DNA of 64,000 nucleotides from Bacteroidales bacterium (GCA_050287785.1 JBNKCO010000018.1:73149-137148), one strand, 5' to 3'. Positions 14,355 through 36,026 are shown, counted from the stretch's first letter. Numbers and translations: made by a program. Notes: generated from the sequence alone by a model not told the origin.

Positions 14355-14417
14355 ATAAAACAAAAAAAACCCGCAAGTAAAGTACTTGCGGGTTTTTATT
14401 TTTTCAAAAATTTTGGC
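14355..14417. repeat. left copy of 63/64-nt imperfect direct repeat (candidate att site)
   Basis: Aligns end to end with 35963-36026 (identical hairpin core, few mismatches, one 1-nt indel); ends in ttttggc then diverges. Confidence 0.8.
14362..14404 (+). terminator. rho-independent terminator after the 1062-aa gene (bidirectional shape)
   Basis: A-tract, 10-bp stem cccgcaagta / tacttgcggg (14370-14379 / 14383-14392), 3-nt loop, T-tract. Confidence 0.8.
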
Positions 14418-14437
14418 AAATAATTAACATAAGGATA

Positions 14438-14468
14438 AACCACACTTAAACCACACTTAAACCACTCT
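14438..14468. repeat. tandem 11-mer aaccacactta x2 plus partial third unit
   Basis: aaccacactta aaccacactta aaccactct read directly, 20 nt inside the left direct repeat. Confidence 0.7.
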
Positions 14469-14833
14469 CAAACAATCAATTATATTAAGTTAGAAATTTT
14501 CATCATTCCAACTGATTCAATAATTAATTCATTGATTTTGTTATTAACAATGAATTGAGTTCCAAAATAACAGGAATAACTGAGGATGAAGAACTCCAAA
14601 TCACCATTAATTACGAAACTGCATACAGCAAAACTATTCTCGAAATGATTGAATATAAGGAATCCCTTTATCAAGAAGATGATTAGGTACAGACAAAATT
14701 GCGTGCATCGGACTACTCTCTCTGTCCAGTGTACGTCTAAATATTTAAAATAAGCCTACATAAATACTATCAAAACAAAAGCGCCAATATTATTTCTCCA
14801 TTTGTGCAATTCGCTAATTACAATAAACACTTA

Positions 14834-16171
14834 TCACTCGATAAATTCCCCTAAATAATATAGTCTCAAAAGATCCTTTTTGAGAAGAGTTTCATATCTC
14901 AAAAGTATATGCGCATTTTCGATTTCATTGAATTGTTTTTTATAAGACAAAACGGTAAATATATTGTCTTTTCCATTTGAATATAATTGCATCCGATTAC
15001 TCAGAATTGTTCTAATACTTAATAACTCTTGCTCTGCTAATGTGAGCTGTTCATTTGTATACTTTGCTTCAAAAAACTGATTCTTTAGTGAGTTTATAAT
15101 AATCATGTATTCTGATTCGATAGTATTTTCATGTTTTCGAATATCGTTTTCACTCAATAAAATCTGTGTTTTTATTTCCCTATTATTAAAAATTGGAATT
15201 GTTAATCGCAAACCAGCAAAACCAGAATAGGAATTCTGAAGAAACGACTCCCAATTACCTCCCTCTGCCCAAGGCTGAAAGCTTGAGTATCCGACTGTCA
15301 AGGAATAGTCAAGACTCAAAGTAGGTAAATTTTTGGCTCGAATAATTTGATGATTCCCTTTCAGATAAGATTGATGCAAATTTAAAATTTTGAGATATGG
15401 ATTATTCTCAACTGATACCTTTTCGAAAATATTATAGTTTTTTAATATGGTATCTGACTCTGTTTTAATACTCTCATAAAAAGTATAATCAAGGTCTAAA
15501 CTATCTTTTGTTTGAAGTGTGTTATTCAGTTTAATAATAGCTAGATCGTAATTTTTCTGCGCAATAAGGAGACTTTTTCTTTCTTGGATTAGTTGTAGTT
15601 TTGATTCTTCGACATCATTCTGCATGATTTTACCTAACTCAAACAATTTTTCTGTATAAGTTAATATACTATCAGCTATATCAAGTTGCTTTCTATTCGC
15701 TACTAATTGTTCATGGCTAAACAAAACTGTAAAGAAGCTTTCAATCACCTTACCTGTGATATCAAACATTGAATACTCTGCTTCAGATAATTCTCTATTC
15801 AAAGATATATTCGCAAGCTTTACTTTCTTCCAGTTATTAAACCAATTGAAAAGCATCGTGTTTCCGTTCAAGGAAAATGTACTGGAATAATTCTCCAAAA
15901 CCGGGGAATGTATTTCATTATGATTAATATTATGTGTAAAGGATGCATTTATTGAAGGAATAAATCCTAATTCAGCATTGCTAACACTATATTCCGCATT
16001 TTGAATTTCAACATCGGCATTTTTCAACTCTACCCTATTTTCTAATGCAATATCGATGCAATCAGATAGTTTAAGTTTTTGCTGTCCCAGCAATATTGGC
16101 TTTATAAGAAAGCTAAGGAGTATACTAATAATTGCGATAGTATGTGCCCTGGGTTTGGTATTTATTTGCAT
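14834..16171 (-). CDS. TolC-like outer-membrane efflux protein (OEP family)
   Basis: 445 aa; signal sequence; two coiled-coil/beta repeat halves typical of outer-membrane factors; 6 nt downstream of the C39 ABC exporter. Confidence 0.8.
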   Translation of the reverse strand: MQINTKPRAHTIAIISILLSFLIKPILLGQQKLKLSDCIDIALENRVELKNADVEIQNAEYSVSNAELGFIPSINASFTHNINHNEIHSPVLENYSSTFSLNGNTMLFNWFNNWKKVKLANISLNRELSEAEYSMFDITGKVIESFFTVLFSHEQLVANRKQLDIADSILTYTEKLFELGKIMQNDVEESKLQLIQERKSLLIAQKNYDLAIIKLNNTLQTKDSLDLDYTFYESIKTESDTILKNYNIFEKVSVENNPYLKILNLHQSYLKGNHQIIRAKNLPTLSLDYSLTVGYSSFQPWAEGGNWESFLQNSYSGFAGLRLTIPIFNNREIKTQILLSENDIRKHENTIESEYMIIINSLKNQFFEAKYTNEQLTLAEQELLSIRTILSNRMQLYSNGKDNIFTVLSYKKQFNEIENAHILLRYETLLKKDLLRLYYLGEFIE

Positions 16172-16177
16172 ATGATA

Positions 16178-18367
16178 TTAGTTTTTTGAGAGTTCTTCTT
16201 TAAAATGTATCTCATTATACATCTGGCTGTAAAGATTATCTGTTTTCATCAAGGTTTCTTTAGCACCTGAAATTTCAATAGTATTATTCTGAAGGATGTA
16301 GATTTTATCTGCTTTGTTTGCAATTTTCAGTTGATGGGTAACCAAAATTATCCCACATTTTTCTCTAAACTTGTTTAACACAGACAATGCAAAATTCTCT
16401 GTATTCCTATCCATTGCAGAAGTAGGTTCGTCGAGCAATAACAATGATGGCTTTTTAGTTAGAGCTCTACATAAACTAATCAATTGTTTTTGCCCGCCAG
16501 AAATATTAATTCCTTCTTCACCCAACATTGTGGAATAACTTTGAGGAAACAAAGAGAAATATTTATCAAATTCATGCTTTTGACAAAATTCAATGCACCT
16601 ATTTACTTCATTTTCATCTCCGCCCATGCATAAATTATCCATTAATGTTCCATTGAATATGGAAGCCTCCTGGGGTACTACACCTAGAATGTGGCGGTAA
16701 TCTGGTGGAAATACATTGTCTAGGTTACTGTTATTTAAAAATGTTTTACCACTTTCTGGTTTATAGAACCCTTGCAATATATTTAGCAATGTAGTTTTTC
16801 CGCCTCCACTCTCACCTAGAATAGCAACAACTTCACCTTTACTCAGAGATAAGTTTATATTTGATAGTATTTGTTTCCTTCCCGGAAAACGATAACTAAC
16901 GTTTTCTAATTCAAGGCTTTTGAAGGATATATCAATTGTAGTTCGTTCTTCCTGAATATTATATTCCGGATTAATAGTTGCAAATTCATACATTCTGTTG
17001 AAAGCTACTTTTGCTCCTTGTAGAGTAATATTTGCAAAGGCCAAAGAAGCTATTGCTGGAAATAAAGAGCCTGTTATACCTAAAACAGCCATTAGTGTTC
17101 CTGTTGACATACTAGTAGACACAACTAACCATGAACCTAGGCCCAAGACACCAATTGTTATAATTACCCCAACTATATCAGCAAGAGCCTGAATGCTTAT
17201 GCCTAGTTTACCTAGGTGAAATATTTTATCCTGAAAATGGCCGTAAATTAGCTGATTAATATTTGTAAAAATATTCTCTTTGTTTTGTGTTTTGATTGAA
17301 CTAACACATTCCATTGTATTAATATAATTGCTTGTTTTATGGGAGTTTGCTGACATTACTTCTTGTTGGGCATTTACAATATTCTTATGGTATTTAAATG
17401 ATATAAATGCAAATATTGGTAAGCTTGAAATTACAATAGTCCCAATAATTCCGGAATAAACGAATAATACAACCAAACCTACTACTACTAAAAGAAAATT
17501 CATCAGCAATTCCATAACAACCTGAGTAATTGCAATCTGTATTCTGGAGGTATCGTCCATACGTGCAACAAGTTCTCCTACTCTTCTGTTATCAAAAAAT
17601 GATTTAGGTAGGAATAAAAGGCTGCTATAAAAACTGCCAATTAACCTGATATTAAAACCTTTACTTTGAGTAATTCCAAAGAATCCGGTAAGGTACGATA
17701 AACCACTGCGGGCGATTAGAAGTGTTAATAGTAATATTGTACCAAGAATAATTTTTTCGTAATCTTTTTCTGGTAGAATAACATCAATTAACTTTTGGGA
17801 ATAAATAGCCATGCCAAGACCAAGAGCAGATACCATAAGGCTTAAAATGAATATGATACCAAGCAAACTTTTATCCTCTTCTATTATTTGCTTAAACCAT
17901 TTTATTTTATTCTTTTTTTCTTTTTGAACTTTCTCGAAACTACTATTGGGTGTTAATTTTAAAAGAGCTTTTGAGCGCCAGATAGCTTCTAATTCCTGCT
18001 CTGTATATTTAACAATGCCCTTTGCCGGATCTCCAATAATAAATTTCCCTGAATTAAAACGATAGCAAACAACATAATGCTGCATACTGTTATCTAAGAT
18101 AACGTGAAGAATAACAGGCGTTTCATTTTTTTTCAACCATTCAATTCCTACCTCAAGCCCTTCTGCATTAAAACCACATTTTTGCGAACTCTGATATAAA
18201 CCTAAAATAGTTGTGCCTTGTTTAGAAGTACCGCTTAACTCTCTGAGTTGTTCAAGACTTTTTCTGCCACCGTTATAATTAATAACCGATAACAAACAAG
18301 CTACTCCACAGTCTGACTGATCTTGTTGAACAACAAATGTTTTAGATAGACTTTTCTTTTCTTTCAT
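16178..18367 (-). CDS. peptidase C39-containing ABC transporter (PCAT, bacteriocin processing/export)
   Basis: 729 aa; N-terminal C39 domain (QQDQSDCGVACLLSVINYNGG, later HYVVCY); 6-TM domain; Walker A GESGGGKTT, signature ISGGQKQ, Walker B LLLLDEPTS. Confidence 0.9.
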   Translation of the reverse strand: MKEKKSLSKTFVVQQDQSDCGVACLLSVINYNGGRKSLEQLRELSGTSKQGTTILGLYQSSQKCGFNAEGLEVGIEWLKKNETPVILHVILDNSMQHYVVCYRFNSGKFIIGDPAKGIVKYTEQELEAIWRSKALLKLTPNSSFEKVQKEKKNKIKWFKQIIEEDKSLLGIIFILSLMVSALGLGMAIYSQKLIDVILPEKDYEKIILGTILLLTLLIARSGLSYLTGFFGITQSKGFNIRLIGSFYSSLLFLPKSFFDNRRVGELVARMDDTSRIQIAITQVVMELLMNFLLVVVGLVVLFVYSGIIGTIVISSLPIFAFISFKYHKNIVNAQQEVMSANSHKTSNYINTMECVSSIKTQNKENIFTNINQLIYGHFQDKIFHLGKLGISIQALADIVGVIITIGVLGLGSWLVVSTSMSTGTLMAVLGITGSLFPAIASLAFANITLQGAKVAFNRMYEFATINPEYNIQEERTTIDISFKSLELENVSYRFPGRKQILSNINLSLSKGEVVAILGESGGGKTTLLNILQGFYKPESGKTFLNNSNLDNVFPPDYRHILGVVPQEASIFNGTLMDNLCMGGDENEVNRCIEFCQKHEFDKYFSLFPQSYSTMLGEEGINISGGQKQLISLCRALTKKPSLLLLDEPTSAMDRNTENFALSVLNKFREKCGIILVTHQLKIANKADKIYILQNNTIEISGAKETLMKTDNLYSQMYNEIHFKEELSKN

Positions 18368-18742
18368 TTTGGACTAGTCTTTTAAAATAAAAACTTCGGT
18401 GCTTTTTTATATGTGATAGATTGTGATTGTATTGGTAAAATATTAAATATCGCAAAAACAAAATCCGCATTCATCACTACTCTTATACAGTCTTTAAAAA
18501 CTAGCCTTTTCCCCATTAGAAGACAACCAATATAGAGGCAACAGGTAGCGAAAATTGATTTCACAAAAAGAATCAGAATATTACTAATGTAACCTAGCCA
18601 TCCAGAAAGTTAAAATGGCATGTGAACTAGATATCACTCCATACCTCAATAAGGGTTTAGTGAAAATTAAGGCATAAGTATTCCGATTCTGAAAAGATCA
18701 ATGGGATTCTTCAAAACAATAATTACTATGTTTGCAATTAAT

Positions 18743-20053: not shown

Positions 20054-20121
20054 AACAATAGGTTTATATAGTTAAAAATAATACTTTTCTTATCAAAATA
20101 CTCGTCGGTATTATACCAAGA

Positions 20122-21386: not shown

Positions 21387-21590
21387 TTAAAAACCACATG
21401 CTTCTCCCATTGCAATAGCGCCATAACTTGATGCTACAAAGCCCCCAGCACAAGCCAAACCTACAGAAGCAGCGCAGGTAGCAGCTGATATTACAACTAC
21501 TCCAGCATATAAGCCAATCATAATACCACATTTCCAACTGCCACCTTCAAGGTTTTCCATTTGTTCTAAACTTAAACTTTTCGTTTTCAT
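21387..21590 (-). CDS. double-glycine-leader class II (Blp-like) bacteriocin precursor, 4-Cys glycine/alanine-rich core
   Basis: MKTKSLSLEQMENLEGG / SWKCGIMIGLYAGVVVISAATCAASVGLACAGGFVASSYGAIAMGEACGF. The leader fits LSxxELxxIxGG. I prefer the ATG at 21590 over the track start at 21614. Confidence 0.85.
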   Translation of the reverse strand: MKTKSLSLEQMENLEGGSWKCGIMIGLYAGVVVISAATCAASVGLACAGGFVASSYGAIAMGEACGF

Positions 21591-21689
21591 AATTTTAATT
21601 TTTAAATTAGACATTAAGTTGAATTAATGTCCCCGTTGGCGCCTAACAGAGACAAAGCTTTATTTTGGATTTAACAAAACTCAAATAAA

Positions 21690-22460: not shown

Positions 22461-23543
22461 TTATTTTAAGTCTGTGTCGGGAATTTTAACTTGATTGCCT
22501 AATTCCAAACCTTCAAGTATTTCTGTTTTAACGCCATCTGATATTCCGGCAATCATTGCTTTCTTAATGTATTTGTTCTCAACATCGTGCACATAAACAA
22601 AAGCACTGTCTTCTTCATAAGATATGTATTTTTCTTCTAAACATAAAACACTATCCTTCTCTGCAATTGTAATAATAGCAACTGCATTTATTCCTCCGTA
22701 AAGTTTTTGGTCGCAGTTTATTATAGCTGCCTCAACTGGAAATTTAACTATCCCATTTTTATCTATTCCTTTCGGATATATTTTATCTATCTTCCCTTTA
22801 ATCTTAACTCCTTCAGTAAAAACAGTCTCGATAAATAATTCCTGTTCTTTATAAATTTTATTCAAATCCCTTTCCTGTATTTCTCCAAAGAATTTCAATG
22901 AATTCATATTAGCTATAACAGCAATAGTTGTTCCTTCGTTAAAGTTGTTTTGCTTGATTACAGGGGAACCCGGTTTTGCAAACAATGTCAAAATTGTACC
23001 AGAGGCAGATGCATATATAATATTTGATAATTCCTTGTCCGAAGTAATAACTCCCTTTGTTGCCATTAGGAGTTTTTTTCTTGCACTTTCGAATTGTTCT
23101 ATTGTTTCTTTATATTTTGCATCAACACTTTCAAATTCTGCTTTTGAGCTCAGCCCTGCTTCGCACAAACTCCTTTCTCGTTCATAGTTTATCTTAGCCG
23201 TATTTTTCTGAATTTCAAAAAGACTAACTGCCGATTTTAGGCTTTCAACATCCATGGGTTCTGTTAGATTTCTAATTTCTGCAATCTTTTGCCCCTCTTC
23301 AACTACTTGGCCAACTTCAACAAAAACCTTTTCAACAATACCATTTATTTTTGATTTAACCTTTATCTCCTCTGCAGGCATTATTTTCCCATTTATCCTC
23401 CTGTCAATTTTTATTGATTCTATTGTGGGGTTGCCTATTAGATAATTAGATGTCACGTCTTTGCGATTGATCTCTTTGAAAACAATCATGCCAATAACTC
23501 CAACAAAGAATACCAGTAGCAATATATTTAAGAGTTTTTTCAT
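22461..23543 (-). CDS. efflux periplasmic adaptor (MFP, HlyD/MacA-like)
   Basis: 360 aa; N-terminal TM anchor; lipoyl-like hairpin (INGIVEKVFVEVGQVVEEGQKIAEI), coiled coil, beta-barrel. Confidence 0.85.
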   Translation of the reverse strand: MKKLLNILLLVFFVGVIGMIVFKEINRKDVTSNYLIGNPTIESIKIDRRINGKIMPAEEIKVKSKINGIVEKVFVEVGQVVEEGQKIAEIRNLTEPMDVESLKSAVSLFEIQKNTAKINYERERSLCEAGLSSKAEFESVDAKYKETIEQFESARKKLLMATKGVITSDKELSNIIYASASGTILTLFAKPGSPVIKQNNFNEGTTIAVIANMNSLKFFGEIQERDLNKIYKEQELFIETVFTEGVKIKGKIDKIYPKGIDKNGIVKFPVEAAIINCDQKLYGGINAVAIITIAEKDSVLCLEEKYISYEEDSAFVYVHDVENKYIKKAMIAGISDGVKTEILEGLELGNQVKIPDTDLK

Positions 23544-23672
23544 TATTTATTAGATTTAGTCTCAAGATGTGAGACATTAGACATGAGACTATCTGAATTC
23601 ATTATTTTAAATTTTTAATTCTCCATTATTCATTATAAATTACAAATTCTTCTCTCTTAACTCTTCACCCTA

Positions 23673-24926
23673 TCATAAACTCCTCATCGCTACAACCGGT
23701 TTAATTTTCGCAGCCTTAAAGGCCGGAAGAAATCCTGCTACAAGTCCTGAAAATAATAATATCGTAATAGCAAGAACTATGTATTTTGGCTCAAGTGCAG
23801 TATGTGTAAAAAATCGATCATCACCTGTGCTTTTTGAAACCATAAGGTTTATTAACTTTAGAAATCCTGTACCAATCACCAATCCTAATATTCCAGACAA
23901 AATAGTTAGAATAACAGATTCAAAGAGAAACTCTTTTAGAACCACAACAGAGGATGCTCCAACTGCTTTTTTTATCCCGATCTCACGAGTTCGCTCTTTT
24001 ACAATAATGTACATAACATTACTTACTCCAATCATTCCACTTAGTAACAAACAGCAACCAACGAAAACAAAAAAAATGTTTAAGCCATTAAAAAGTTTTG
24101 AAAAGCTCGACATTTGTTCTTCATAGTTCACTACATATAAAGCTTTATTATTATTACTATCGAAATGATACTTTTTTGCTAATAATGATGTTATTTTCTC
24201 GGCATACCATTTTGTGTTTCCATCTGCTACAGTAATACCGAAAGACTTAAATTCATGAATAGGCTTGATAACTTCTGAAAAGCTTGTGTAAGGAATGAAT
24301 ATACAGTTTTGTTCATTCATCGACATTAGCGACTTATTATCCATAATTCCAACTACTAGAAAGTCTGTTCCGTTAACAGAAATGTTTTTATTAATTGGGT
24401 TGGAATTGCTGAAGAACTGTTTAACAATTCGGTCTCCGATTATGCAAATATTTCGGCCTTCATGGATATCGCGCTTATTGATTCTTCGTCCTTGTTTAAC
24501 TTTAAGGTTTTTTAATTTAAAGCTTTGTGTATTTATACCCTTTATTGTGAAATGTCCTCGTTCAGAATTATGTATTACAACTGTTCCGGAATTCTGAATT
24601 TCTGGAGATATTGCAATAATATTTGGAATACTTTTTTTTATTACTTCCAAATCAAAGAATTTAAAAGTAATATCTTTTCCTGAATCGCGCATTGAAATAT
24701 TTTCATCAGATTCTCCGCCGTAAAACATGATGGTTTTTTGAGTAAATCCTTTAAATAATCTATATACTCCTTCCTGCACTCCTCCACTAATCCCTAAGAG
24801 AACAATTAGAATAAAGATTCCCCAAGCAATTCCAAAAGAAGTTAGCAGGGTTCTTAATTTGTGAGCTTTAAGATTACTGTATATTTCTTTAACTAATTCA
24901 TAATATTTCTGAAAAGGCACTTTCAT
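23673..24926 (-). CDS. MacB-type ABC permease (MacB periplasmic core domain + FtsX)
   Basis: 417 aa; N-terminal KLRTLLTSFGIAWGIF helix, large periplasmic loop, three C-terminal TM helices, EIGIKKAVGAS motif. Confidence 0.85.
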   Translation of the reverse strand: MKVPFQKYYELVKEIYSNLKAHKLRTLLTSFGIAWGIFILIVLLGISGGVQEGVYRLFKGFTQKTIMFYGGESDENISMRDSGKDITFKFFDLEVIKKSIPNIIAISPEIQNSGTVVIHNSERGHFTIKGINTQSFKLKNLKVKQGRRINKRDIHEGRNICIIGDRIVKQFFSNSNPINKNISVNGTDFLVVGIMDNKSLMSMNEQNCIFIPYTSFSEVIKPIHEFKSFGITVADGNTKWYAEKITSLLAKKYHFDSNNNKALYVVNYEEQMSSFSKLFNGLNIFFVFVGCCLLLSGMIGVSNVMYIIVKERTREIGIKKAVGASSVVVLKEFLFESVILTILSGILGLVIGTGFLKLINLMVSKSTGDDRFFTHTALEPKYIVLAITILLFSGLVAGFLPAFKAAKIKPVVAMRSL

Positions 24927-25632
24927 AAAAGGGCTGAGATTGGATTAGGGTTTTATCATTGACTATTCTGCCATCAACTAAATTAATTATTCGATTTGTT
25001 TGGGCTGCAATATTATTATCGTGTGTAACTAATATAATTGTTTTTCCTTCTGAGTTGATATCTTCTAATACAAGCATTATTTCTTCCGATGTTTTTGAAT
25101 CTAAAGCACCTGTTGGTTCGTCGGCCAAAATAATTTTTGGATCAGTTATTAAAGCTCTTGCAATTGCAACTCTTTGTTTTTGTCCTCCTGAAAGTTCATC
25201 AGGCAAATGTTTTGCTCTATCTGACAAACCCAATTTATCGAGAAAAAACATTGCTTTCTCTAATCTTATCCTATTTGAGAAATTCTGATAATATAAGGGA
25301 AGAGCAACATTTTCAATAGCTGTCCGATGTGAAAGAAGATTAAATGATTGGAAAATAAAACCGAGTGTTGTACTTCTTAATAAAGCTTGTTCACTATCGG
25401 TTAAATTTTTAGTTGATTTACCATTCAGAAAATATTCTCCGGAATCGTATTCATCAAGTATACCAATAATGTTTAGCAAAGTAGATTTTCCACAACCAGA
25501 TGGGCCCATTATAGAAATATACTCACCTTGTTTAATACTTAAACAAAGTTTATCTAACGCCACAACTGTATTTGAATGCGTTGAATAGTCTTTCCTTAAT
25601 TCTTTTATTTCTATTAACTTATTTTGAGACAT
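24898..25632 (-). CDS. ABC ATP-binding protein (MacB/LolD-type)
   Basis: Walker A GPSGCGKST, signature LSGGQKQRVAIARAL, Walker B ILADEPTGALD. ATG at 25632 preferred over the TTG at 25644. Overlaps the permease by 29 nt. Confidence 0.9.
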   Translation of the reverse strand: MSQNKLIEIKELRKDYSTHSNTVVALDKLCLSIKQGEYISIMGPSGCGKSTLLNIIGILDEYDSGEYFLNGKSTKNLTDSEQALLRSTTLGFIFQSFNLLSHRTAIENVALPLYYQNFSNRIRLEKAMFFLDKLGLSDRAKHLPDELSGGQKQRVAIARALITDPKIILADEPTGALDSKTSEEIMLVLEDINSEGKTIILVTHDNNIAAQTNRIINLVDGRIVNDKTLIQSQPFYESAFSEIL

Positions 25633-26068
25633 TCCTTTTAACAATCAATTGAAAAAACATATTTTAATTAAAGGGTTGAAAATGATTATAATCCTATATT
25701 TTACATTGTAATGATACAACCGAAAAGATAACAATGAAAATATTTTATGCTAATGCGGCTAATCTCTATTCCAATGAAGAAACCTGCACCACTATTGAAA
25801 AATAAGAAAACTTGTTTTAGTGTAAATGCGCACAAAGTGAACCAATAAATTGACTTTGTATTCAATGCCTTATATAGTCGGCTTAGCATGCAAGGTATGA
25901 CTAATTATATTCTGTCTATAAGCTTCACTAACTTCGTTGCACTCTACTTGAAATCCAGTCATTCCGATGCACGTTCGGGACTCCTGAACCCCAGGTCTCT
26001 CGCGCCTCGTTATTGATGCTTACAGAACAGACTTTTGGAAAAATGCAGACTTTATGGACAAACTCTAA

Positions 26069-26158: not shown

Positions 26159-26178
26159 TCAGTTTAACATAACAAACA

Positions 26179-28380
26179 CTAATGAAATGCTTTTTCTTTT
26201 AGAGAATACTTGAGATGACCGGTCTGCCAAAATGCAAAAGAATATACATTTGCCAATTGTTCATAATATATTGATTTAGTATCATTCAAGCCATGCCCGG
26301 ATTTATAATTCACCGAGAATATAATCGGTTTGTCTGAAATGTTATTGGCTTGAAGTTTGGCAGCAAATTTCCCGGGTTGCCATGCAATTACACGTGGATC
26401 ATTCATGCCAGTTGTAATTAAAGTAGCCGGATAGTCCGTATTCATCTTTATATGAAGATAAGCATCCATCTCAATAAGAGCCATACACTCTGTAGAATCT
26501 TTTATTGTTCCAAACTCTTTGGCATTATTAGGGCCATTAGGGGTTTCTTCATTTCTAAGTGGATTCATCATTCCAACTTCTGCAATAGCCACAGCAAACA
26601 AGTCTGGCCTTTCTGTTAAAGCACGTCCAATAAGTATTCCTCCTGCACTCCCTCCCCTGATTACTGTTTTATTTTTAGATGTGTACCCCTCTTTAATCAT
26701 AAATTCAGTACAGGCTATAAGATCTTTCCATGTATTTGGCTTGGTTATCTTTTTACCCTCTTGATACCAATTGTCTCCTTTTTCTCCTCCTCCCCTTACA
26801 TGAGCTATACACAAAATACCTCCTTCTTCTACCCAGGTTAACCATTTTGGATTAAAGTAAGGTCTGATGGAATGTCCATAGGAACCATATCCATAGATCA
26901 TTGTCGGATGTTGTCCATTTAATGAAATATTCTTTTTATGTATCACAGATAGTGGAACTTTTTCTCCATCATACGAGGAAACAAGCAGCTCTTTTAATAC
27001 AAAATCATCAAACTCTGGGAAAAATGTTTTTGGTTCAAGATTTTCTTCAATAAATGTGTTTTTAGTAAAATTGTATTGATATCGGTTATAATCATTTATC
27101 CAGCCTATGGTTGATACCCATAATTCTGGATAATTGGTACCTTTATTAAAAATATTTATCCTACCTGATGGATTTGGTAAGACTATCTCATTTTCTTTTC
27201 CATCGTTTAAACTATATAGTTTGCCTTCAACACCATTTTTAGTACTTGTATAATAAAGGCAGTTAGAGGTTTGTTTTATATCTCTGATAACTTCGTCATG
27301 TTTTTCGTCTACCAGTACGGTCGCATTTTTTATATCAGGATCTCTTAACAAAGAACTCAACACTTGAAAGTTTGAAGAATTAAGTGCTGACAAACATATA
27401 AAAGTAGTATCCTCAAATATTATTTTTTCTACCTTATCCGCTTTCTTATGTAGAGGTTGCCATTCAAGATTTCCCTTTTGAATATTTTTAAGCAGTCCAT
27501 AATATCCATCATGGTATGCTGTAGCTCCACCAATATTTACATATAAATATTGATCTTCCTCTGACTGACACATAACAATAGGAAAATCTTCTGACCTCAA
27601 GTTAAGCTCAGGATGAGTCTCTCTACTTAATAAAACATTTAGTTTTTTGGGATCATCTCCTATTTTATAGAAAACAGACATCGTGTTTTTTAAAAAATTT
27701 TCTGAAGTATGATCTATTTCAGGTAAATGCACATACAAAATACCACTATTATCCGGAAGCCAACTTATCCCACCAATTCCTGTTGGCCAACAATGATCGA
27801 TAATTTGTGGCAATACTTTCCTGTTTCTCATATCTATAAAGATTATCTCTGAAACTTCTTCACCATTATGCGACAATGATACAGCTATATAGTCACCATT
27901 CCAACTTGGTTTAATATAATTAATAACATAGGTATTACCTGTCTCTATCTTGAAATTTTTGGGATCAAATAATAGTTCATCTTTGCTACTGAAACTCTCT
28001 CGATAAAACAAACGAGCTACATCCTCATCAGCTCCCTGCTTTAAAAAGAAATACTGATCGTTTCCTGTTACATATACCTTCCAGACTTCAAACGATACAC
28101 GTTGGTCATACATCTTCATTTTTTCTATCAATTCTGCTTTGCCAGTAATATTCCAAAAAATTCTTTTTGCAAATTCAGATTCTTCTTTAAACCATTTTTG
28201 TACAAGAGTATCTTTTAAGTTTTCAATATTTCTATAATCATCCTGAATAGTTTTACCAAAATACTTTTCTGAAACAATTTGCATTGGTGCTTCCGGATAA
28301 TCAAAACGTGATGAATTTATTTTCTCAGACTGATTACATCCAATTAATAAGATCAAAAGAAGTGGGCTTAGTTTTTTCAT
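26179..28380 (-). CDS. prolyl oligopeptidase (peptidase S9A), lipoprotein
   Basis: 733 aa; lipobox LLIGC; propeller region; catalytic domain with GGSAGG nucleophile elbow, NDPRV Asp, SGHG His. Confidence 0.9.
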   Translation of the reverse strand: MKKLSPLLLILLIGCNQSEKINSSRFDYPEAPMQIVSEKYFGKTIQDDYRNIENLKDTLVQKWFKEESEFAKRIFWNITGKAELIEKMKMYDQRVSFEVWKVYVTGNDQYFFLKQGADEDVARLFYRESFSSKDELLFDPKNFKIETGNTYVINYIKPSWNGDYIAVSLSHNGEEVSEIIFIDMRNRKVLPQIIDHCWPTGIGGISWLPDNSGILYVHLPEIDHTSENFLKNTMSVFYKIGDDPKKLNVLLSRETHPELNLRSEDFPIVMCQSEEDQYLYVNIGGATAYHDGYYGLLKNIQKGNLEWQPLHKKADKVEKIIFEDTTFICLSALNSSNFQVLSSLLRDPDIKNATVLVDEKHDEVIRDIKQTSNCLYYTSTKNGVEGKLYSLNDGKENEIVLPNPSGRINIFNKGTNYPELWVSTIGWINDYNRYQYNFTKNTFIEENLEPKTFFPEFDDFVLKELLVSSYDGEKVPLSVIHKKNISLNGQHPTMIYGYGSYGHSIRPYFNPKWLTWVEEGGILCIAHVRGGGEKGDNWYQEGKKITKPNTWKDLIACTEFMIKEGYTSKNKTVIRGGSAGGILIGRALTERPDLFAVAIAEVGMMNPLRNEETPNGPNNAKEFGTIKDSTECMALIEMDAYLHIKMNTDYPATLITTGMNDPRVIAWQPGKFAAKLQANNISDKPIIFSVNYKSGHGLNDTKSIYYEQLANVYSFAFWQTGHLKYSLKEKAFH

Positions 28381-28574
28381 ATTGTTGCCTTATTAGTAAA
28401 AATACTTTTATGGGTTTTAACCAGTAAAATAATTTTATGTAGAGTATTGCTGTTTATAAAATATTAAATAATCAGAATGTTGAACATAAATATATCATTA
28501 TATGTGCTTGAAAGTGTAATTACAGAATAAGCAAATTAGTATTTGCCCTACAACAAACTAATCTAGAAATCAAA

Positions 28575-29297
28575 CTAAGAAATATTCAATGCCTTAAGCA
28601 CCCCTTTTTTATAAGTTATTCCTATTGGGATATTTACTTTTTTATTCTTCCTTTCAATTAATATCTCACTACCTCTAACCGATTCTATTTTATCAATTGC
28701 CATTATATAAGACTTATGAATTCTAATAAAAATATCTTTTGGCAATATCTCCATTATGGAATTCATTGATTTATAAATAATATGCTTATTTTCTTCCATC
28801 ACAATTATAATATAATTCCTAGCAGCTTCAATGTATAGAATATCGTTAAAATCAATTTTAACCTTTTTCCCATCTACATCGGCAAAAAAGAAATTATGAA
28901 TTGGTTCTGCAGTTCTCTGTTTGTCCAGATCATTTAAAATTCGATCTACCGATTTTTTAAATCTTTTAAATGTTACTGGTTTCAATATATAATCAGATAC
29001 TCCCAACTCGTAACCGCTTAAAGTATAATCAATGTGCCCGGTTGTTAAAACTACATGCGGAATATTATGGCCCCACCTTTCTTTCATATTCTCAATTAAA
29101 TCAATTCCAGTAAATTCGGGCATTTGTATATCCAAAAACATTATATCTGGCTTATTGCTATCTAAAAAAGCAAGTACATCAATAGACTTGGTGCTTGCAT
29201 ACATTAATGCTAGCTGTGGTATTTTATTTATATGGTCTTTAATAAGGTTAATTGCCTCTTCCTGGTCATCGACAACTATGCAATTGTATTGTTTCAT
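28575..29297 (-). CDS. LytTR-family response regulator
   Basis: Receiver (IVVDDQE, FLDIQMPEFTG, ILKPV) plus LytTR domain (FIRIHKSYIMA). Confidence 0.9.
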   Translation of the reverse strand: MKQYNCIVVDDQEEAINLIKDHINKIPQLALMYASTKSIDVLAFLDSNKPDIMFLDIQMPEFTGIDLIENMKERWGHNIPHVVLTTGHIDYTLSGYELGVSDYILKPVTFKRFKKSVDRILNDLDKQRTAEPIHNFFFADVDGKKVKIDFNDILYIEAARNYIIIVMEENKHIIYKSMNSIMEILPKDIFIRIHKSYIMAIDKIESVRGSEILIERKNKKVNIPIGITYKKGVLKALNIS

Positions 29298-29316
29298 TGT
29301 TTTTTTTGTGAATTTC

Positions 29317-30357
29317 TTAACTATTAATCCTCAGTATACTATAATACATATTTTCTTTTTCTTCAGTAATCAACTCATAATTTTCGCTATAATGCAGATT
29401 AAGTATTTGCCTTGCGTTTTCAAGGCCTATACCAGAGCTTACTACATTTTTATTTTTATTTATCATGTTCTTCACATAAAACTCTATTTGATTTTCAGTA
29501 ATTACCAACTTGATTTCAATTGGATTTTCCTTTGTGCTATAAACTCCATGTTTAAAGGCATTTTCCACAAAGGTTATCAAAACTCTGGGATATATAGTAA
29601 TGCCATCCAAATTACCCTTGGTTACAATATCCACAAACACATCTTTGTTGAGTATTTTACGTAAACTAATATAATTGCTTAAGTATCTAATTTCATCCTT
29701 TAACTGAACGGTAACTTCAGGAGCATAGCTGGTATAATAACGTAACATGTCAGAATATTTCTCAATCGCTCTAGCAGTTTCTTTCGAGCATTGATTAGCG
29801 ATACTATAAATATGGTTTAAGAAATTAAACGTAACATGTGGATTAAACTGATTTTTAAAAAAAAACAGTTCCTTTTTTAAAAGGGCGGTGTCTTTTTCAT
29901 TCTGTAATCTAATTTTTTGCATTTTAAGTTTCCTAAAATAATAGGAAAAAGCAACAAGGCAAATTATAAAAAACCATGTAGAATAAATCCTAAAAAACCT
30001 TTGACTTGGAAATAAAAGTTGAGGTTTAATTTTTAAAATGGTAACATCATAGATAAAATAGGAATTCAAGTAACCAATAAAATAATAAACAAGTAATTGA
30101 ACAATAAAAAAGGTGAAAAACAACAGTTTCCCTTTAGGCCAAAATTTTGGTAAAGTGAACATTATCAATCCATAAAAAGCGACTAAATGATTAACATAAA
30201 GTATAGAGTTAAATATTATCTTCCCTGGATATATTTCTTTAATTTGAGCTGTATTATATAAATATACAATTAGCACAATCCAAATAGCAAAATGACTGAT
30301 GATATTCTTATTGAATTGATTTGTCACCTTATTTTTATAGACTAAAATCTTTCGCAT
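29317..30357 (-). CDS. membrane histidine kinase (PF06580 type) without a large sensory exo-domain
   Basis: 346 aa; about 5 N-terminal TM helices; H-box FNPHVTFNFLNHIYS; FVENAFKHG; SGIGLENARQIL. Confidence 0.85.
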   Translation of the reverse strand: MRKILVYKNKVTNQFNKNIISHFAIWIVLIVYLYNTAQIKEIYPGKIIFNSILYVNHLVAFYGLIMFTLPKFWPKGKLLFFTFFIVQLLVYYFIGYLNSYFIYDVTILKIKPQLLFPSQRFFRIYSTWFFIICLVAFSYYFRKLKMQKIRLQNEKDTALLKKELFFFKNQFNPHVTFNFLNHIYSIANQCSKETARAIEKYSDMLRYYTSYAPEVTVQLKDEIRYLSNYISLRKILNKDVFVDIVTKGNLDGITIYPRVLITFVENAFKHGVYSTKENPIEIKLVITENQIEFYVKNMINKNKNVVSSGIGLENARQILNLHYSENYELITEEKENMYYSILRINS

Positions 30358-30496
30358 ATTCTTATTTTAAAATAGCCTTTTTACTTTATGATCATATTCA
30401 TTTTCCATACATTAATAACTATTTATGAAAACTTTTCAGCAACTAAATATCTATGTGTCCAATATAAGAGATTAAAAAAAACATAACAACCTTAAC

Positions 30497-31339
30497 TTAG
30501 TCTTCAATATTTTCAGGGATTTTATTTTTCGGGTATTTTAATGTAAATTCAGGATGAGCGAACTGCCAGAATAAAAATGAAAAGCTGTCTGCACTTTCGG
30601 AAAACCTAGAATGTCCTTTATCAGATATGTTAAACAATATAATATTATTCTTAGAATTCAAACTTTGCAGGCGAGCAACTGTTTTACCTGTTTGCCATGG
30701 TGAAACGCGAGGATCATTCAACCCTGCAGAAAAAAGAATTGAAGGATAATTCACACCCGTTTTTATATGGTGATAAACATCCATATTATATATATATATT
30801 GAAACTCCAATAAATGCGACAAAATTAGCATCATAGGAAGGTTCATAATAATCAATCCTATATTCTACACTGTCGGCCATGTTTATGCTGTCTAAATTAA
30901 ACAACTCTTTAAGTGCGTCAGCAATAGAAGGCATGTAGTTTAAAGTATAAGCCTTTGTTGCATAAGAATACCTGGCGAAAAATAAATCTTCTCCAACTGC
31001 TCTAGGCAAGTCTGACCAATAGGTGCGTTGATTATTTAAATTGTTAATCTCTTCTTTGATAGAATCTCTACTAGTTATATTATACATTACAGAGTCATAA
31101 AATGCCCTTTGTCCTGCGTACCAAGTTTTAACTAATGCATCTTCTAAGTTTTCAATATTACGGTAAGGATCAATTACTTCCATTCCAAAATAGTTATCTA
31201 TAGCCGTATCAGGAGCTATTATTGGATAATTCCAGGTTGCTTGTTCCAATGGAACTTCTTGAGGATACGAAATAAGAATAATAAAACATGATAGGATAGA
31301 CAGGGTTGATTTCATTATGTTATTATGCAATATGGTCAT
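30497..31339 (-). pseudogene. prolyl oligopeptidase paralog with large in-frame internal deletion (no nucleophile, no propeller)
   Basis: N-terminal ~190 aa (DPYRNIENLEDALVKTWY..) and C-terminal ~95 aa (NMDVYHHIK..GLNDPRV..KGHS..FLFWQFAHPEF) align to residues ~1-170 and ~638-733 of the intact POP. The junction IYIY is encoded by (TA)6 at 30787-30799. Confidence 0.8.
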
Positions 31340-31375
31340 TTGTTTATATTATTACAGCTATTCGTTTACGTAGAT

Positions 31376-32389
31376 CTACCATATTATGGTTAACGTGCTG
31401 GTGTAAAATTCATTTAATTGTTTAATATCTATTTTGTACTTTCCTTTATAATGCATTTCCAGGATTTGTTTCAAATTGTCTTCACCTAAGCCAGCTAAAA
31501 TTGGTTTCTTATGTCTGGTTATTTTGTTTTTTACCGAAAAATCAAGTCTCTCTTTGCTAGCTTTCATGTTTATTTCAATAGGATATTCCTTGTTGTTTAA
31601 CTGCTCACGTATAAAGACATTCTCAACAAATGTCACTAAAAGTCGTGGTAAAATCGATTTATTCTTAGCCTTATTCTCGTAGTTAAAAACTACATACAAT
31701 TCTGAACTTAGCGCTTTTTGCAACTCAACAAAATTATCTAGATACTCAATCTCATGTTCCAGTGGAACACTTTCATTAAGATTAGTTCTTAATGAATATT
31801 CCAGCATATCAGAAAACACTTCTATCGAGTTTGTTGCTTTTTCAGAATATTTGTTCAAATGGCTGTAGCAAAAGTTTAAAAAATTAAAGGTTAAATGGGT
31901 GTTAAACTGTCCTTTAAGAAAATCAAGTTCGTTATTAATCAATACTTCTTCTTTTTGTTTTTGCAGGGCGAGTTTGTATATATTCAATTTGTTCAAATAA
32001 AACACAAATGCACAGGAACCTATAATAGAAAGTTGAAGAATTGCATCAATAATAAAAACTGTTACAGGTTTTCCATAAAGCTTGCTAGTACCACCAAGTT
32101 TTGGAACTATATACATCACCCTCACATATTTAATCAAAACAAATACAATAAAAACAGTACACAAACTCATAAAAAAAACTAAAAATTGTTTTGTATAGAG
32201 TTTTGGGAAAATATTTAAGGCCAGGGCATAGTATAAAAATATATAATTCCCAAATCCTACAGCACCACCAATTATATTTACTCTAACATCTCCGGGAATT
32301 GGATCAATTAGCATTATAAATGCAATAATTAGTACCCAACTGAAAAAGTGTTTCTTTAATTCTTTATTAGGTAGAGTAAAAGGATTCAT
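31376..32389 (-). CDS. membrane histidine kinase (PF06580 type), paralog of 29317-30357, no adjacent response regulator
   Basis: 337 aa; about 5 TM helices; H-box FNTHLTFNFLNFCYS; FVENVFI and AGLGEDN boxes are somewhat degenerate. Confidence 0.8.
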   Translation of the reverse strand: MNPFTLPNKELKKHFFSWVLIIAFIMLIDPIPGDVRVNIIGGAVGFGNYIFLYYALALNIFPKLYTKQFLVFFMSLCTVFIVFVLIKYVRVMYIVPKLGGTSKLYGKPVTVFIIDAILQLSIIGSCAFVFYLNKLNIYKLALQKQKEEVLINNELDFLKGQFNTHLTFNFLNFCYSHLNKYSEKATNSIEVFSDMLEYSLRTNLNESVPLEHEIEYLDNFVELQKALSSELYVVFNYENKAKNKSILPRLLVTFVENVFIREQLNNKEYPIEINMKASKERLDFSVKNKITRHKKPILAGLGEDNLKQILEMHYKGKYKIDIKQLNEFYTSTLTIIW

Positions 32390-32835
32390 AAAAACATATT
32401 TATCCGAAAGATAATTTTATTATTAGGGATATTATTAATTCTTATTCATACTTTGTTTTTTTTTGGACAAACATAAGAATTACTTATATGAATTTAGAAT
32501 AGGTAGACAAGTAAATATTACAAAAACATATGACTTTGTATGCTAACACTTAAGGTTTTCTAAACATGATAAAAAAAGGTAAAGCTTAGCTGATAATTAA
32601 TTTTTTAACCAAAACATTAAATACTAAAGGCACAATATACCAAATCAATAGATAAAAACTAAATGAGCTGATATAAATGAATAATAATTATACTAAATGC
32701 CAATTATTTAATATAAATTATCTATTGAGTTGTTTGAAATGGCTTTTTGACTTCACAAGTAAAAACATTAGAAATGAAATTAGTTATGAATTTAATTATG
32801 TTTGTACACACAAACCTTATTATAAAATTTCAAAT

Positions 32836-32995
32836 ATAAAAAAGACAAAAGAACTTCAACTTAAAAAACAGGTAATACAACATTTGACTAAAAATGAACA
32901 ACTCTTTATATAGAGGTGGTGGTGACACTGGGTATGGTAATAGTGATCTTACTGATAATCCATCTCAGATAGGTGGTACCGGCACAAAACACTAA
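32836..32995 (+). pseudogene. GG-leader precursor-peptide gene, apparently inactivated (ATA in place of ATG, +1 frameshift before the GG site)
   Basis: Frame 1 reads (ATA)KKTKELQLKKQVIQHLTKNEQLFI*. Frame 2 reads ..LYRGGGDTGYGNSDLTDNPSQIGGTGTKH* (ATG at 32894, stop 32993-32995). Lies just upstream of lanB. Confidence 0.5.
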
Positions 32996-33085
32996 TGTAA
33001 ATCAGTTTTAGAATACAAGGTGAATTCTTACATAAACCTTGTATTCTTACTTATTTAATTTTAATATCTCACTCTAAAGAATTAA

Positions 33086-35382
33086 ATGCCCTTTAAAATT
33101 CATCCGAAATTAATATTACGCTCTCCAAGTTTCCATTTTAAAGGATTAAAAACATAAAGAAATACATTAAACAGTTAAATATATCTTATAAAGAAAATAG
33201 AATTTTACAGACTGACCTGGTAAAAGAAGCCAAAACCTCTAAACTCAACCAGGGAATTCAAAAAACTCTGAAAAACGGTATTAACGCTTTACTGTATTTC
33301 ACACAAAAACCGATAAAATATAACTTAGAAAAGTTTAAAGAATCGTTTGTTAAAAGATACGAATTGAAAGAGGTACCCTTACTAAATGCCCTTGATACAG
33401 AAACCGGACTTGGCTACCCCATTGTCATTATTGGCAGCAAAACACCTCTAATTGAAAATATTGCTTTTACGCTTCATGAAACAAATAGTATTGCTTTTAA
33501 TGAAAGAGATAAGATTTGTCTGGAGATATTACAAAAGGCTCACTTGTTTAATGATTATTCTGTAGACATTAAAGATTTTATTTCGAACAAACCTAAACCA
33601 AATTGGGATAGTCTACCTCCTTCGTTTTCAGCAATGTTCAGAGTAACTAATTTTGAGAAAAATGAAATTTTTCTGGAATCGGTAGGGGGGAGCAGTGCGA
33701 TAAATCTTTTAGGCAGATTTGCACATACCGACAAGCAGATACACGAAATAATATCGAAAATAGCTAATGAAGAGCAAAAAAATAACCCTGATGTTATTTT
33801 TGCTGAGATAGCTCACAATCCGGAGAATCGTACGGGAAATATTATCTCACACCCTGCTTTTAGAGATTATGAAATCCCAATTGTATCTTCATCTAACCCA
33901 AATGTTAAGCATTCAATTGCATTGTGTGATCTTTTATTATCAGTAAGAAACAACAGGATTATTCTAAGGTCGAAAAAGTTAGACAAAGAAATAATTCCTC
34001 GATTAAGCAATGCACATAATTTTCCCAAGAGTGAACTACCTATATATAGGTTTCTGTGCGATCTTCAAACACAAAATAACAATTCATCACTTTCATTCAA
34101 TTGGGGAAGTCTATCAGACAATTTTCTGTTTCTTCCTAGAATAACACATGATAATACAATTCTCAGTCTTGCTACCTGGAAATTGCCAAAAAGCGAACTA
34201 CTCATCTTAACAAAGAATAAGAATGCTTATTTGCTTTTGCCTGAATTTCTAAAGAAATGGAAGATTCCAAATCAAGTAGTAATTGCTGACAGAGATAACG
34301 AGCTATTTATTGATTTTAGTAATGATTTATCTGTTGAAGTTTTTTTAGACGTAATAAGAAAAAAAGAAAGCATTGTTTTAAAAGAATTTCTTTTCGATGA
34401 AAATACTCCTATTGTCGATGAGAATGGGAAAAGATATACTAATCAGTTTATAGCCTCTTTCGTAAAAGATGAAGCTGTTTACAAGAGGAAATCTTTTTCC
34501 CATGAATCGAATATTGAAGTTAAGCGTGAATTTACGCCAGGTTCTAAGTGGGTATATTTAAAATACTATTGTGGAACAAATACAGCTGACAACCTGTTAA
34601 GCGATATTATTAAGCCAATAGCTGATAAATTCCTAAAAGAACAAATTATTGATAAATGGTTTTTTATACGTTATCGCGATGAAGATGAACACTTAAGGGT
34701 AAGATTCCACATAACTAACACAAAGTATCTCTCCGAGGTAATGCAAACAAACTCAGGATACACACAGAAATATATCGACCAAGGTCTTATCTGGAAAGTA
34801 CAAACCGACACTTATATTAGAGAAATAGAGCGGTATGGTGCTGCAACAATGGAATTAAGCGAACAGCTTTTCTTTTATGATAGCGAAGCTATTTCAATAT
34901 TTCTATCATCAATTGATGAAACTACTGATACAAACATACGATGGCTATGGGGAATAAAAGCCATAGACACTCTAATGAATTGCTTTGGCTTAGAGCTGGA
35001 AGATAAAAAGAAATTAATGGAGCAATTAAAAATTGCATTTGCAAATGAGTTTAAGTTAGAAAAACCATCCAAGCTTCAAGTTGATAAGAATTATCGAAAA
35101 TACTCTAAGCAGATATGTTCTGCATTAGATAATAATTTGGAGGAAAATCCCTTGTATTCTTACCTGAATATTATTGAAGATTATCAAATTAATATCTTGA
35201 AAATTGCACCGAATATAATTTTAAGAACGTCTAACTCTTCTGATTTATGGAGTTATCTCAAAAGCTATATTCATATGCATATTAATAGGTTGCTAAAAAG
35301 CTCTCAACGCCTAAATGAAATGGTTATTTACGATTACATTTATAGGTACTATCGTTCTCTTATGGCCAGGGGAAATAAATAA
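33086..35382 (+). pseudogene. lanthipeptide dehydratase (LanB-like), 5'-truncated and frameshifted
   Basis: MPFKIHPKLILRSPSFHFKGLKT* (33086-33157) is in a different frame from the 33142-35382 ORF. That ORF has FKESFVKRYELKEVPLLNALDTETGLGYP, which lies ~380 aa into NisB but ~90 aa in here. C-terminal elimination domain present (WVYLKYYCG..WFFIRYRDEDEHLRVRF..ERYG). Confidence 0.7.
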
Positions 35383-35401
35383 AACATCACATAAAAAAAT
35401 G

Positions 35402-35437
35402 GGTGCTATCAAACCAATGATAGCACCAGACATTTTT
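35402..35437 (+). terminator. hairpin terminator after lanB
   Basis: 10-bp stem ggtgctatca / tgatagcacc, 6-nt loop, downstream attttt. Confidence 0.5.
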
Positions 35438-35962
35438 GTGAACCAACCTAAATACTCCCTAATTTTTGTAAATTGTTTTAACGGCACTGAGTATCCCAAA
35501 ATTTATTTCAATTCTCATTCCTTTAATTTCAACCATAACATTTTGTAACTTTTTCATTGGATATAGCATAACTTTAAAAAATTACCTCTATAGATGTTTA
35601 TTCGCTTAATGTTTAAATAGGATTGAAAAATCACTTTTGGTATTAGAGATTTCATTTGTATTGGTTTATTAACACTTCAAGAATATAATCTTTGCTTGAA
35701 AAAATAAAATCTATTATCCCAATTGAATGAATCTATATTCAAATGTAAAAATGAGCCTTACATCTAAAATTTGTGTTTAGAAAATTAACCTCGGTGTAAG
35801 CGACAATAAAATGAAACAATCTAAATTATTTGTTAAGAATTAATCTATCAGATAAAGATTAATACATCTACTATCATATTATGTAACTAATTGTATATTC
35901 TCAATGTGAACGCACATATATCCTGACAAATCAGACTTTCAGAACTTCAAGCTTACTCATTA

Positions 35963-36026
35963 ATAAAACACAAAAAACCCGCAAGTAAAGTACTTGCGGG
36001 TTTTTATTTTCTCCTAAAATTTTGGC
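35963..36026. repeat. right copy of 63/64-nt imperfect direct repeat (candidate att site) overlapping the last 4 nt of tRNA-Ser
   Basis: Aligns with 14355-14417; its last 4 nt (tggc) are the discriminator + CCA of the tRNA on the minus strand. Confidence 0.8.
35971..36006 (-). terminator. terminator hairpin immediately 3' of tRNA-Ser
   Basis: Same stem cccgcaagta / tacttgcggg (35978-35987 / 35991-36000), flanked by A- and T-tracts. Confidence 0.75.

Follow-up and report, generated by a model that had tools for sequence, protein, structure and literature searches.

The window analysed in this study is a stretch of 64,000 nt from a Bacteroidales bacterium (GCA_050287785.1 JBNKCO010000018.1:73149-137148), read on one strand from 5′ to 3′. 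Its subject is the block of 21.6 kb at 14418-35962, which lies between two copies of a direct repeat (14355-14417 and 35963-36026), the right-hand copy ending in an intact tRNA-Ser(UGA) gene. Aligned with MAFFT, alongside a direct-repeat search of the window, the copies differ by 3 substitutions and one 1-nt indel over 64 columns (~94 % identity) and form the longest direct repeat within the window. Both contain a 39-nt perfect core, AAAAAACCCGCAAGTAAAGTACTTGCGGGTTTTTATTTT, in which the hairpin CCCGCAAGTA-AAG-TACTTGCGGG, with its 10-bp stem, is preceded by an A tract and followed by a T tract, in agreement with the original prediction of a 63/64-nt direct repeat with an identical hairpin. The 23-nt hairpin occurs exactly twice in the window, 0.00 copies being expected in shuffles. 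When both strands of the whole window were scanned by Smith-Waterman, the score of the other copy was 106 against a background maximum of 28, and no third copy was found on either strand.

The repeat ends with the discriminator base and CCA (GCCA) of tRNA-Ser(UGA), and 4 nt of the tRNA gene are thus shared. ARAGORN places the gene at 36023-36110 and Rfam the tRNA body at 36026-36110, without CCA, the tRNA being the only feature found by the Rfam scan; both agree with the junction originally described. The 22-nt spacer between the hairpin and the tRNA is also part of the repeat. Beyond the GCCA the left copy diverges from the tRNA, with a local score of 5, which is equalled by 64 % of random windows; a decayed tRNA fragment after the left copy was therefore rejected, the similarity being indistinguishable from chance. 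In a short-read assembly of the same organism, contig 3027 of Logan SRR36185847 (L082) ends inside the left hairpin, at window position ~14393, as expected for a genuine repeat that exceeds the k-mer, and another contig (L001) begins inside the tRNA. K-mer assemblies are thus broken at precisely the island junctions, by the repeat on one side and the tRNA on the other.

Both copies fold as hairpins of -21 to -23 kcal/mol (z ~ -5) on either strand, with a GC-rich stem of 10 bp, or of 15 bp including the A/U tracts, and with T tracts on both strands. In the predicted fold, each copy has the GC-rich hairpin and the U tract 3′ of a gene that define an intrinsic terminator, and the copies stand after the tRNA (minus strand), after a gene for a 1062-aa protein (plus strand) and after a TolC operon (minus strand). 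Both are predicted from this folding to be bidirectional intrinsic-terminator-like sites. A hairpin directly follows the 3′ end of this tRNA in every relative fetched via the SpoU methyltransferase gene. The closest relative, a Bacteroidales metagenome-assembled genome (MAG; L002) with 70 % identity to the window in SpoU, 96 % in the LytTR regulator and 86 % in HtpG, has the same CCCGCAAGT/ACTTGCGGG stem at the orthologous position. These two observations identify the right copy as the predicted terminator that belongs to the tRNA itself, still where it stood ancestrally, and the left copy as the derived one. Since the left copy has the 22-nt spacer and the GCCA as well, it comes from the tRNA flank and not from an unrelated terminator.

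That the repeat belongs to a dispersed terminator or repetitive extragenic palindromic (REP)-like family, two copies of which flank the block by coincidence, is very improbable. The stem AACCCGCAAGT...ACTTGCGGGTT does arise independently as a terminator in 24 unrelated metagenome contigs, and the copy counts given above are those of the 64-kb window. However, only two copies are present in those 64 kb, and among 80 relatives' loci the stem was found only twice, both times at the tRNA of L002. In the window the identity runs beyond the hairpin through the loop, the spacer and the tRNA end, whereas the metagenome matches are all unrelated terminators with other loops and flanks, none of them near tRNA-Ser. 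There is no indication from these matches of a dispersed family to which the repeat of the window would belong, and a separate scan of viral contigs for the hairpin gave no match.

Comparison of the flanks places the limits of the insertion elsewhere than at the repeat. The window opens with the end of purB and an ABC exporter gene (Table 1), and in nine relatives (L004, L005, L019, L031, L032, L044, L050, L056 and L064) purB-ABC ends 72-1665 nt from the tRNA-Ser 3′ end; in the window this distance is 33,966 nt. The relatives with adjacent flanks (9-10) belong to other genera or families. On the right, the order is HU, SpoU, LytTR, a 277-aa protein, HtpG, aminotransferase and PheT, and this flank, which is syntenic in many Bacteroidales and Marinilabiliales genomes, is core. 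As purB-ABC stands next to the tRNA in relatives, all of 2057-36022 (~34 kb) is variable DNA, and the left repeat is internal to it. Absence from the orthologous site, with the flanks adjacent, is therefore found for the whole 34 kb and not for the 21.6 kb specifically. An island of 21.7 kb bounded by the repeats had been proposed; the DNA between the copies is indeed accessory, but the insertion is ~34 kb long. Likewise, the proposed ancestral order of 1062-aa gene, terminator and tRNA-Ser is wrong, since the conserved neighbour is purB-ABC and no 1062-aa orthologue stands next to the tRNA in the relatives compared. Homologues of the 1062-aa gene (<=60 % identity) are in unrelated contexts and never by tRNA-Ser, one of these contexts being in a MAG with a tRNA-Ser flank among the closest to that of the window; 1062-aa orthologues were therefore rejected as a left anchor. 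An older third repeat copy at the ABC-side edge (2057-2270) was also rejected, the Smith-Waterman score there being at background level.

Table 1. Features of the window and integrase loci at the same tRNA-Ser site in relatives. Positions are those of the window unless a locus is given.
Feature	Position	Strand	Evidence or remark
purB 3′ end (adenylosuccinate lyase)	3..203	+	tblastn with L005 purB: 69 % identity, last 67 residues
ABC exporter (ABC_membrane + ABC_tran)	209..2056	+	Pfam; conserved tRNA-Ser neighbour in relatives
Distal variable segment	2057..14354		Absent between ABC and tRNA in relatives
C10-peptidase type IX secretion system (T9SS) protein	2271-7127	-	Pfam
LytTR regulator	7784-8560	-	Pfam
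Histidine kinase	8571-10391	-	Pfam
1062-aa LamG/CBM protein	11128-14316	+	Pfam
Left repeat copy	14355..14417		Predicted bidirectional terminator between 1062-aa gene and TolC-like operon
11-nt tandem repeat, 3.5 copies (TAAACCACACT)	14436..14473	+	19 nt inside left repeat copy
TolC-like outer-membrane protein	14834-16171	-	Pfam/NCBIfam
C39-peptidase bacteriocin export ABC transporter	16178-18367	-	Pfam/NCBIfam
75-aa candidate bacteriocin precursor	21387..21614	-	ORF translation; double-glycine leader ...LEQMENLEGG, then SWKCG...
HlyD/MacA-like adaptor, MacB-type permease, ABC ATPase	22461..25644	-	Pfam
S9 prolyl oligopeptidase	26179-28380	-	Pfam
LytTR response regulator	28575-29297	-	Pfam
Histidine kinase	29317-30357	-	Pfam
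S9 peptidase fragment and second, orphan histidine kinase	30497..32389	-	Pfam, repeat D3
Possible frameshifted lanthipeptide precursor	32677..32995	+	ORFs; by-eye comparison with L112 50-aa double-glycine (GG)-leader ORF
LanB dehydratase remnant, 5′-truncated	33364..35382	+	Pfam, homologue lengths, NCBIfam TIGR03891
Non-coding 580 bp	35383..35962		Position where relatives carry integrase
Right repeat copy	35963..36026		Predicted terminator native to tRNA-Ser, with its 3′ trailer, discriminator and CCA
tRNA-Ser(UGA), intact	36023..36110	-	ARAGORN; Rfam RF00005, 60.9 bits
HU-like protein and SpoU methyltransferase	36504..37524	+	Conserved right anchor
Integrase loci in relatives	L036:8163-9377; L059:8163-9377; L067:3374-4598; L060:8929-9021		L067 split; L060 a 31-aa remnant

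The block had been described as accessory cargo of bacteriocin or ribosomally synthesized and post-translationally modified peptide (RiPP) genes, pumps, peptidases and sensor pairs, several of them decayed, and the protein families (Pfam on the 35 main open reading frames [ORFs] of >=80 aa across the window, with NCBIfam also used), the ORFs themselves and comparison with an intact cluster (L112) agree with this. Approximately 20 % of the block is non-coding, counted from ORF lists. Its left part contains a bacteriocin export set. The transporter has Peptidase_C39, ABC_membrane and ABC_tran domains and scores 415 bits against TIGR01193, under the curated cut-off of 524. The 75-aa ORF has no Pfam or NCBIfam match; its core is Gly/Ala/Cys-rich and hydrophobic (SWKCGIMIGLYAGVV...), and its leader motif and the context of the C39 transporter suggest that it encodes a bacteriocin precursor, making it a candidate new bacteriocin from a poorly sampled Bacteroidota lineage. 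A C39 ABC transporter and a GG-leader peptide gene, the two components of double-glycine bacteriocin export, are thus present together, the peptide being recognized by motif only. The MacA/MacB/ATPase set is probably a peptide efflux or immunity pump, and further genes of the block encode a thioredoxin-like protein, several unknown membrane proteins, DUF2059 and a small HTH protein. This bacteriocin export, immunity and quorum-sensing set of the double-glycine type is probably still functional.

The right part of the block contains a lanthipeptide module. Its S9 peptidase, LytTR regulator and kinase genes (26179..30357) form the same module as in L112, to which they are syntenic with 32-50 % identity. 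In L112 the order is C39-ABC, adaptor, S9, regulator, kinase, 50-aa GG-leader precursor, full LanB and a 406-aa gene, followed by DUF4238 and then an excisionase-like HTH_17 gene. The module in the window has the gene set and order of such Bacteroidota class I LanB-type clusters (S9, response regulator, kinase, precursor, LanB), but its LanB is N-truncated, the 406-aa gene is absent, the precursor is apparently frameshifted, and the module is partly duplicated, in broken form. LanB is 672 aa long, compared with ~1020 aa in 120 homologues, and matches the profile from position 322 only; it is short of ~350 N-terminal residues, for which no remnant was found upstream by Pfam in the plus-strand frames of 32390-33363. 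The S9 fragment has 280 aa, with N- and C-terminal pieces fused, and together with the orphan kinase represents a partial, decayed duplication of the neighbouring module on the left. The candidate precursor sits within ~1 kb of non-coding DNA, where a leader-like frame (...KELQLKKQVIQHLTKNEQLFI*) is followed by ...YRGGGDTGYGN... in another frame; a frameshifted lanthipeptide precursor is tentatively suggested here. Neither a cyclase nor a counterpart of the L112 406-aa gene is present in the window module, and the full-length LanB, cyclase and intact precursor of a class I lanthipeptide cluster are therefore not found together. Because the distant intact cluster L112 is syntenic, the right-hand module is recognized as a broken copy of a known Bacteroidota cluster type. 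It is dead and, as such, should not be counted as a producer locus. The closest LanB homologues were tried as a route to an intact donor and rejected (the best is only 47 % identical, and the context of L113 is unrelated), and L112 was rejected as a tRNA-linked donor, since, although syntenic, it is a 16.8 kb contig without a tRNA.

It had been claimed that the block has no integrase, excisionase, transposase or transfer gene, and this is what the searches returned. Pfam identified no integrase, transposase or transfer gene among the main ORFs of the window, and tblastn with the L036 integrase against the whole window (E<=10) was empty. Four of the six long non-coding gaps were searched with six-frame Pfam (E<=1), namely 35383-35962, 14418-14833, 25645-26178 and 32390-33363, the last in its plus-strand frames only, with 18368-18742 and 19247-20121 left out. 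No remnant of an integrase or of any other protein was found in these four, among them 35383-35962, the stretch near the tRNA for which this search had been proposed. The ~580 bp of 35383-35962 are non-coding, as originally described, and at that position L036, L059 and L067 have an integrase. The non-coding ends of the block showed no meaningful similarity to any of the fetched loci. The 11-nt units inside the left repeat copy were considered as arm-type sites of a recombinase and rejected, there being no copies near the right junction and the count elsewhere being at chance.

The same tRNA-Ser site is occupied in several relatives. L036, L059 and L067 (where the gene is split) encode, ~250 nt from the tRNA 3′ end (251 nt in L036 and L059) and on the strand of the tRNA, a tyrosine integrase whose domains are Arm-DNA-bind_5, SAM_5 and Phage_integrase. 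The distal ends of the integrase elements of L036, L059, L067 and L060 were not found within 9.6 kb. Two further relatives have inserts of 2.3-3 kb that lack an integrase and are flanked by repeats. In L002, a 230-nt direct repeat with 98 % identity (L002:6346-6575 and 8891-9119), consisting of ~140 nt of downstream DNA, the terminator, the spacer and 27 nt of the tRNA 3′ end, flanks a 2.3 kb insert, in which an unknown ORF of 116 aa accompanies an AlbA_2/HATPase_c_4-HTH gene pair; this repeat is unusually long for an attachment (att) identity block. In L017, a Salinivirgaceae MAG, a ~140-nt direct repeat (L017:200-340 and 3284-3422) made up of the terminator and 15 nt of the tRNA-Ser 3′ end flanks a hipB/hipA toxin-antitoxin cassette with DUF7686/7713 and DUF4248. 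The repeats of L002 and L017 reach the T-loop/T-stem region and contain a true tRNA 3′ fragment, whereas the repeat of the window stops at the discriminator base. Because of the integrases in L036, L059 and L067 and the repeat-flanked islets in L002 and L017, the tRNA-Ser(UGA) flank is regarded as a recurrent insertion site, with the terminator regularly part of the duplicated junction. In another near relative (L028:300-730), a tRNA-Ser(CGA) is upstream of tRNA-Ser(UGA), and the GC-rich sequence directly after the tRNA-Ser(CGA) 3′ end recurs in degenerate form ~300 nt away; this second copy may be another junction scar at a serine tRNA.

It is reasonably likely that the block is the remnant of one integrated element, which entered by recombination at the repeat and was later eroded. 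The ancestral order would have been purB-ABC, terminator and tRNA-Ser, with DNA inserted on the 3′ side of the tRNA more than once, so that 2057-36022 would have been acquired horizontally between purB-ABC and tRNA-Ser(UGA)-HU-SpoU. The arrival of the bacteriocin and lanthipeptide block would be the latest or innermost of these events. The incoming DNA would have carried a site like the tRNA-Ser 3′ trailer and terminator and recombined with the resident terminator, leaving one terminator copy at each junction. Most economically, the agent would be a tyrosine integrase of the L036/L059/L067 type, which would once have been present here. The recombination module would have been lost later, together with the 3′ part of the lanthipeptide cluster, from the site of the 580-bp stretch, and the block would for that reason now be fixed. 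It is proposed that both repeat copies survive because each is a bidirectional terminator in use, the right copy serving the tRNA and the left copy the converging 1062-aa gene and TolC operon. In the original prediction of a fixed, eroding tRNA island, the accessory, decayed and integrase-less character of the block is upheld, but its boundaries and the ancestral order are not.

Several observations weigh against an integrated element. The searches for an integrase, an excisionase or a remnant of either (Pfam on the ORFs, six-frame analysis of 4 of the 6 gaps, and tblastn with the L036 integrase) were negative. Only 4 nt of the tRNA are duplicated, without a displaced tRNA fragment, and the attL/attR geometry first suggested is therefore not substantiated. 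The left copy lies inside the variable region, the ABC-side edge of which has no repeat copy by Smith-Waterman, and the 11-nt tandem motif has no counterpart at the right junction. Nor is the hairpin alone diagnostic, its stem being a generic solution. A comparison of GC content and k-mers had also been called for, and the composition of the block hardly differs from that of the core (GC 0.309 versus 0.341; tetranucleotide r = 0.987 with the right flank), the slight AT enrichment being equally well explained by non-coding and decayed DNA. Finally, a GTDB scan gave no conspecific genome and no true empty site, the best SpoU identity being 70 %.

Some of the same evidence bears on an integrase-independent origin by Campbell insertion, which is considered unlikely. 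DNA of a related strain with a captured tRNA-Ser trailer, the copy having been gained by aberrant excision and the donor being circular or linear, would have recombined with the resident terminator in a RecA-dependent manner, and the homology would have been duplicated. The repeats resemble host DNA, and their lengths (64 nt in the window, ~140 nt in L017, 230 nt in L002) greatly exceed the needs of an integrase core. No integrase is carried by any of the inserts of the window, L002 and L017, the boundary on the tRNA side varies between 4, 15 and 27 nt, and the native-like composition is as expected from a donor of the same lineage. However, a perfect core of 39 nt offers little length for RecA to recombine efficiently, the boundaries in L002 and L017 are in the T-loop/T-stem region, as in integrase-mediated events, and integrases do occupy the site in L036, L059 and L067.

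In L057, a 170-nt tandem duplication (L057:8787-8949 and 8994-9163; 94 %) lies just downstream of the same tRNA-Ser, with the tRNA excluded, and could either be a plain duplication or mark the place of an insert since lost. As a plain duplication it would favour an origin in situ, in which the region between ABC and the tRNA grew piecemeal without any mobile unit, and local duplication or gene conversion of the terminator produced the left copy, which was recruited for the converging 1062-aa gene and TolC operon. The functional look of both predicted bidirectional terminators, which are likely under selection, is compatible with this, as are the lack of an integrase, a tRNA fragment and a compositional contrast, and the position of the left copy inside a larger variable region. 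It is nevertheless improbable, as the copy also contains parts that termination does not call for, namely the spacer outside the hairpin and the CCA and discriminator of the tRNA, the copies stand 21.6 kb apart in direct orientation exactly around a coherent accessory cluster, and L002 and L017 have the same geometry with true tRNA fragments.

Insertion of one element followed by erosion is the favoured explanation for the window. A broader proposal, to which little probability is given, is that the tRNA-Ser(UGA) trailer and terminator of Marinilabiliales-like Bacteroidota undergo recurrent cassette insertion without an element-encoded integrase, possibly by homology-driven Campbell insertion of circles with captured host trailer DNA or by trans-acting recombinases using the hairpin as core. 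If so, the unusually long terminator-containing repeats (64, ~140 and 230 nt) would be left by this process, and the site would be stocked with small competition and defence cassettes, such as the bacteriocins here, hipBA in L017 and the AlbA_2/HATPase_c_4 pair in L002.

In the tDNA islands catalogued by Islander, which are integrated by tyrosine integrases, the crossover is in the anticodon or T-stem region, all 3,919 islands being in those two classes (PMC4383910). Shared with these are an accessory block by an intact tRNA 3′ end, direct repeats from the tRNA locus, and integrase-bearing inserts at the same tRNA in relatives. Islander islands have a recognizable tRNA fragment, whereas the displaced copy in the window is 4 nt of tRNA with 60 nt of trailer and terminator; the block has no integrase and is the inner part of a 34 kb variable region. 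The intact tRNA at one end is thus present, but the displaced fragment, the integrase and the anticodon or T-stem crossover are not. NBU2-type elements are mobilizable transposons at tRNA-Ser. Another mobilizable transposon, MTnBf8 of Bacteroides, has a 25-bp attR next to tRNA-Ser (PMC13597742). With elements of this type the block shares the phylum- or order-level group, the tRNA-Ser 3′ end as target and terminal direct repeats; they are <20 kb, with int and mob genes and short att identities, whereas the block has neither int nor mob and its 64-nt repeat is almost wholly outside the tRNA. Cis-mobilizable elements (CIMEs), described in Streptococcus, are att-flanked DNA without recombination or transfer genes. 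Like these and other decayed islands, the block has kept its flanking repeats, lacks integrase and transfer genes, and occupies a site used by integrase-bearing relatives; att-type direct repeats are present and integrase, excisionase and transfer genes are not. By analogy, the best fit is with decayed, att-flanked, integrase-less relics. The locus is an island in an eroded state at a hotspot beside a tRNA, and its repeat is non-canonical in that it consists of terminator only.

For annotation, the variable region is to be delimited by its true boundaries, purB-ABC and tRNA-Ser, and not by the repeat. The sequence duplicated at the junctions of an island can be the terminator of the tRNA itself and, as the junction here is a terminator, island finders based on tRNA fragments would miss the case. 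Throughout an under-sampled Bacteroidota group, the tRNA-Ser(UGA) flank is a hotspot of insertion at which bacteriocin, toxin-antitoxin and defence-type genes accumulate. These findings do not challenge what is currently understood about genomic islands; less ordinary is that, in three lineages, cassettes without an integrase are enclosed at this tRNA by long repeats that contain the terminator.

Some further features of the window were observed. In the conserved core flank, 43296-44432 (minus strand) encodes a 378-aa WD40-repeat protein, which matches eukaryote-type beta-propeller families with E down to 1e-63 and has 50-57 % identity in relatives. The window has three LytTR regulators, and the receiver-domain coding regions of two of them, at 29090-29147 and 37778-37835, form a 58-nt inverted repeat with 78 % identity. 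These are paralogues encoded on opposite strands, the first belonging to the island and the second to the core, and the repeat reflects paralogy rather than a structural element. A 28-nt inverted match (89 %) connects 2070-2097, just after the ABC stop, with 32586-32613 in the non-coding DNA upstream of the LanB remnant; it is borderline (E ~0.002 in a small search) and may be due to chance in AT-rich DNA.

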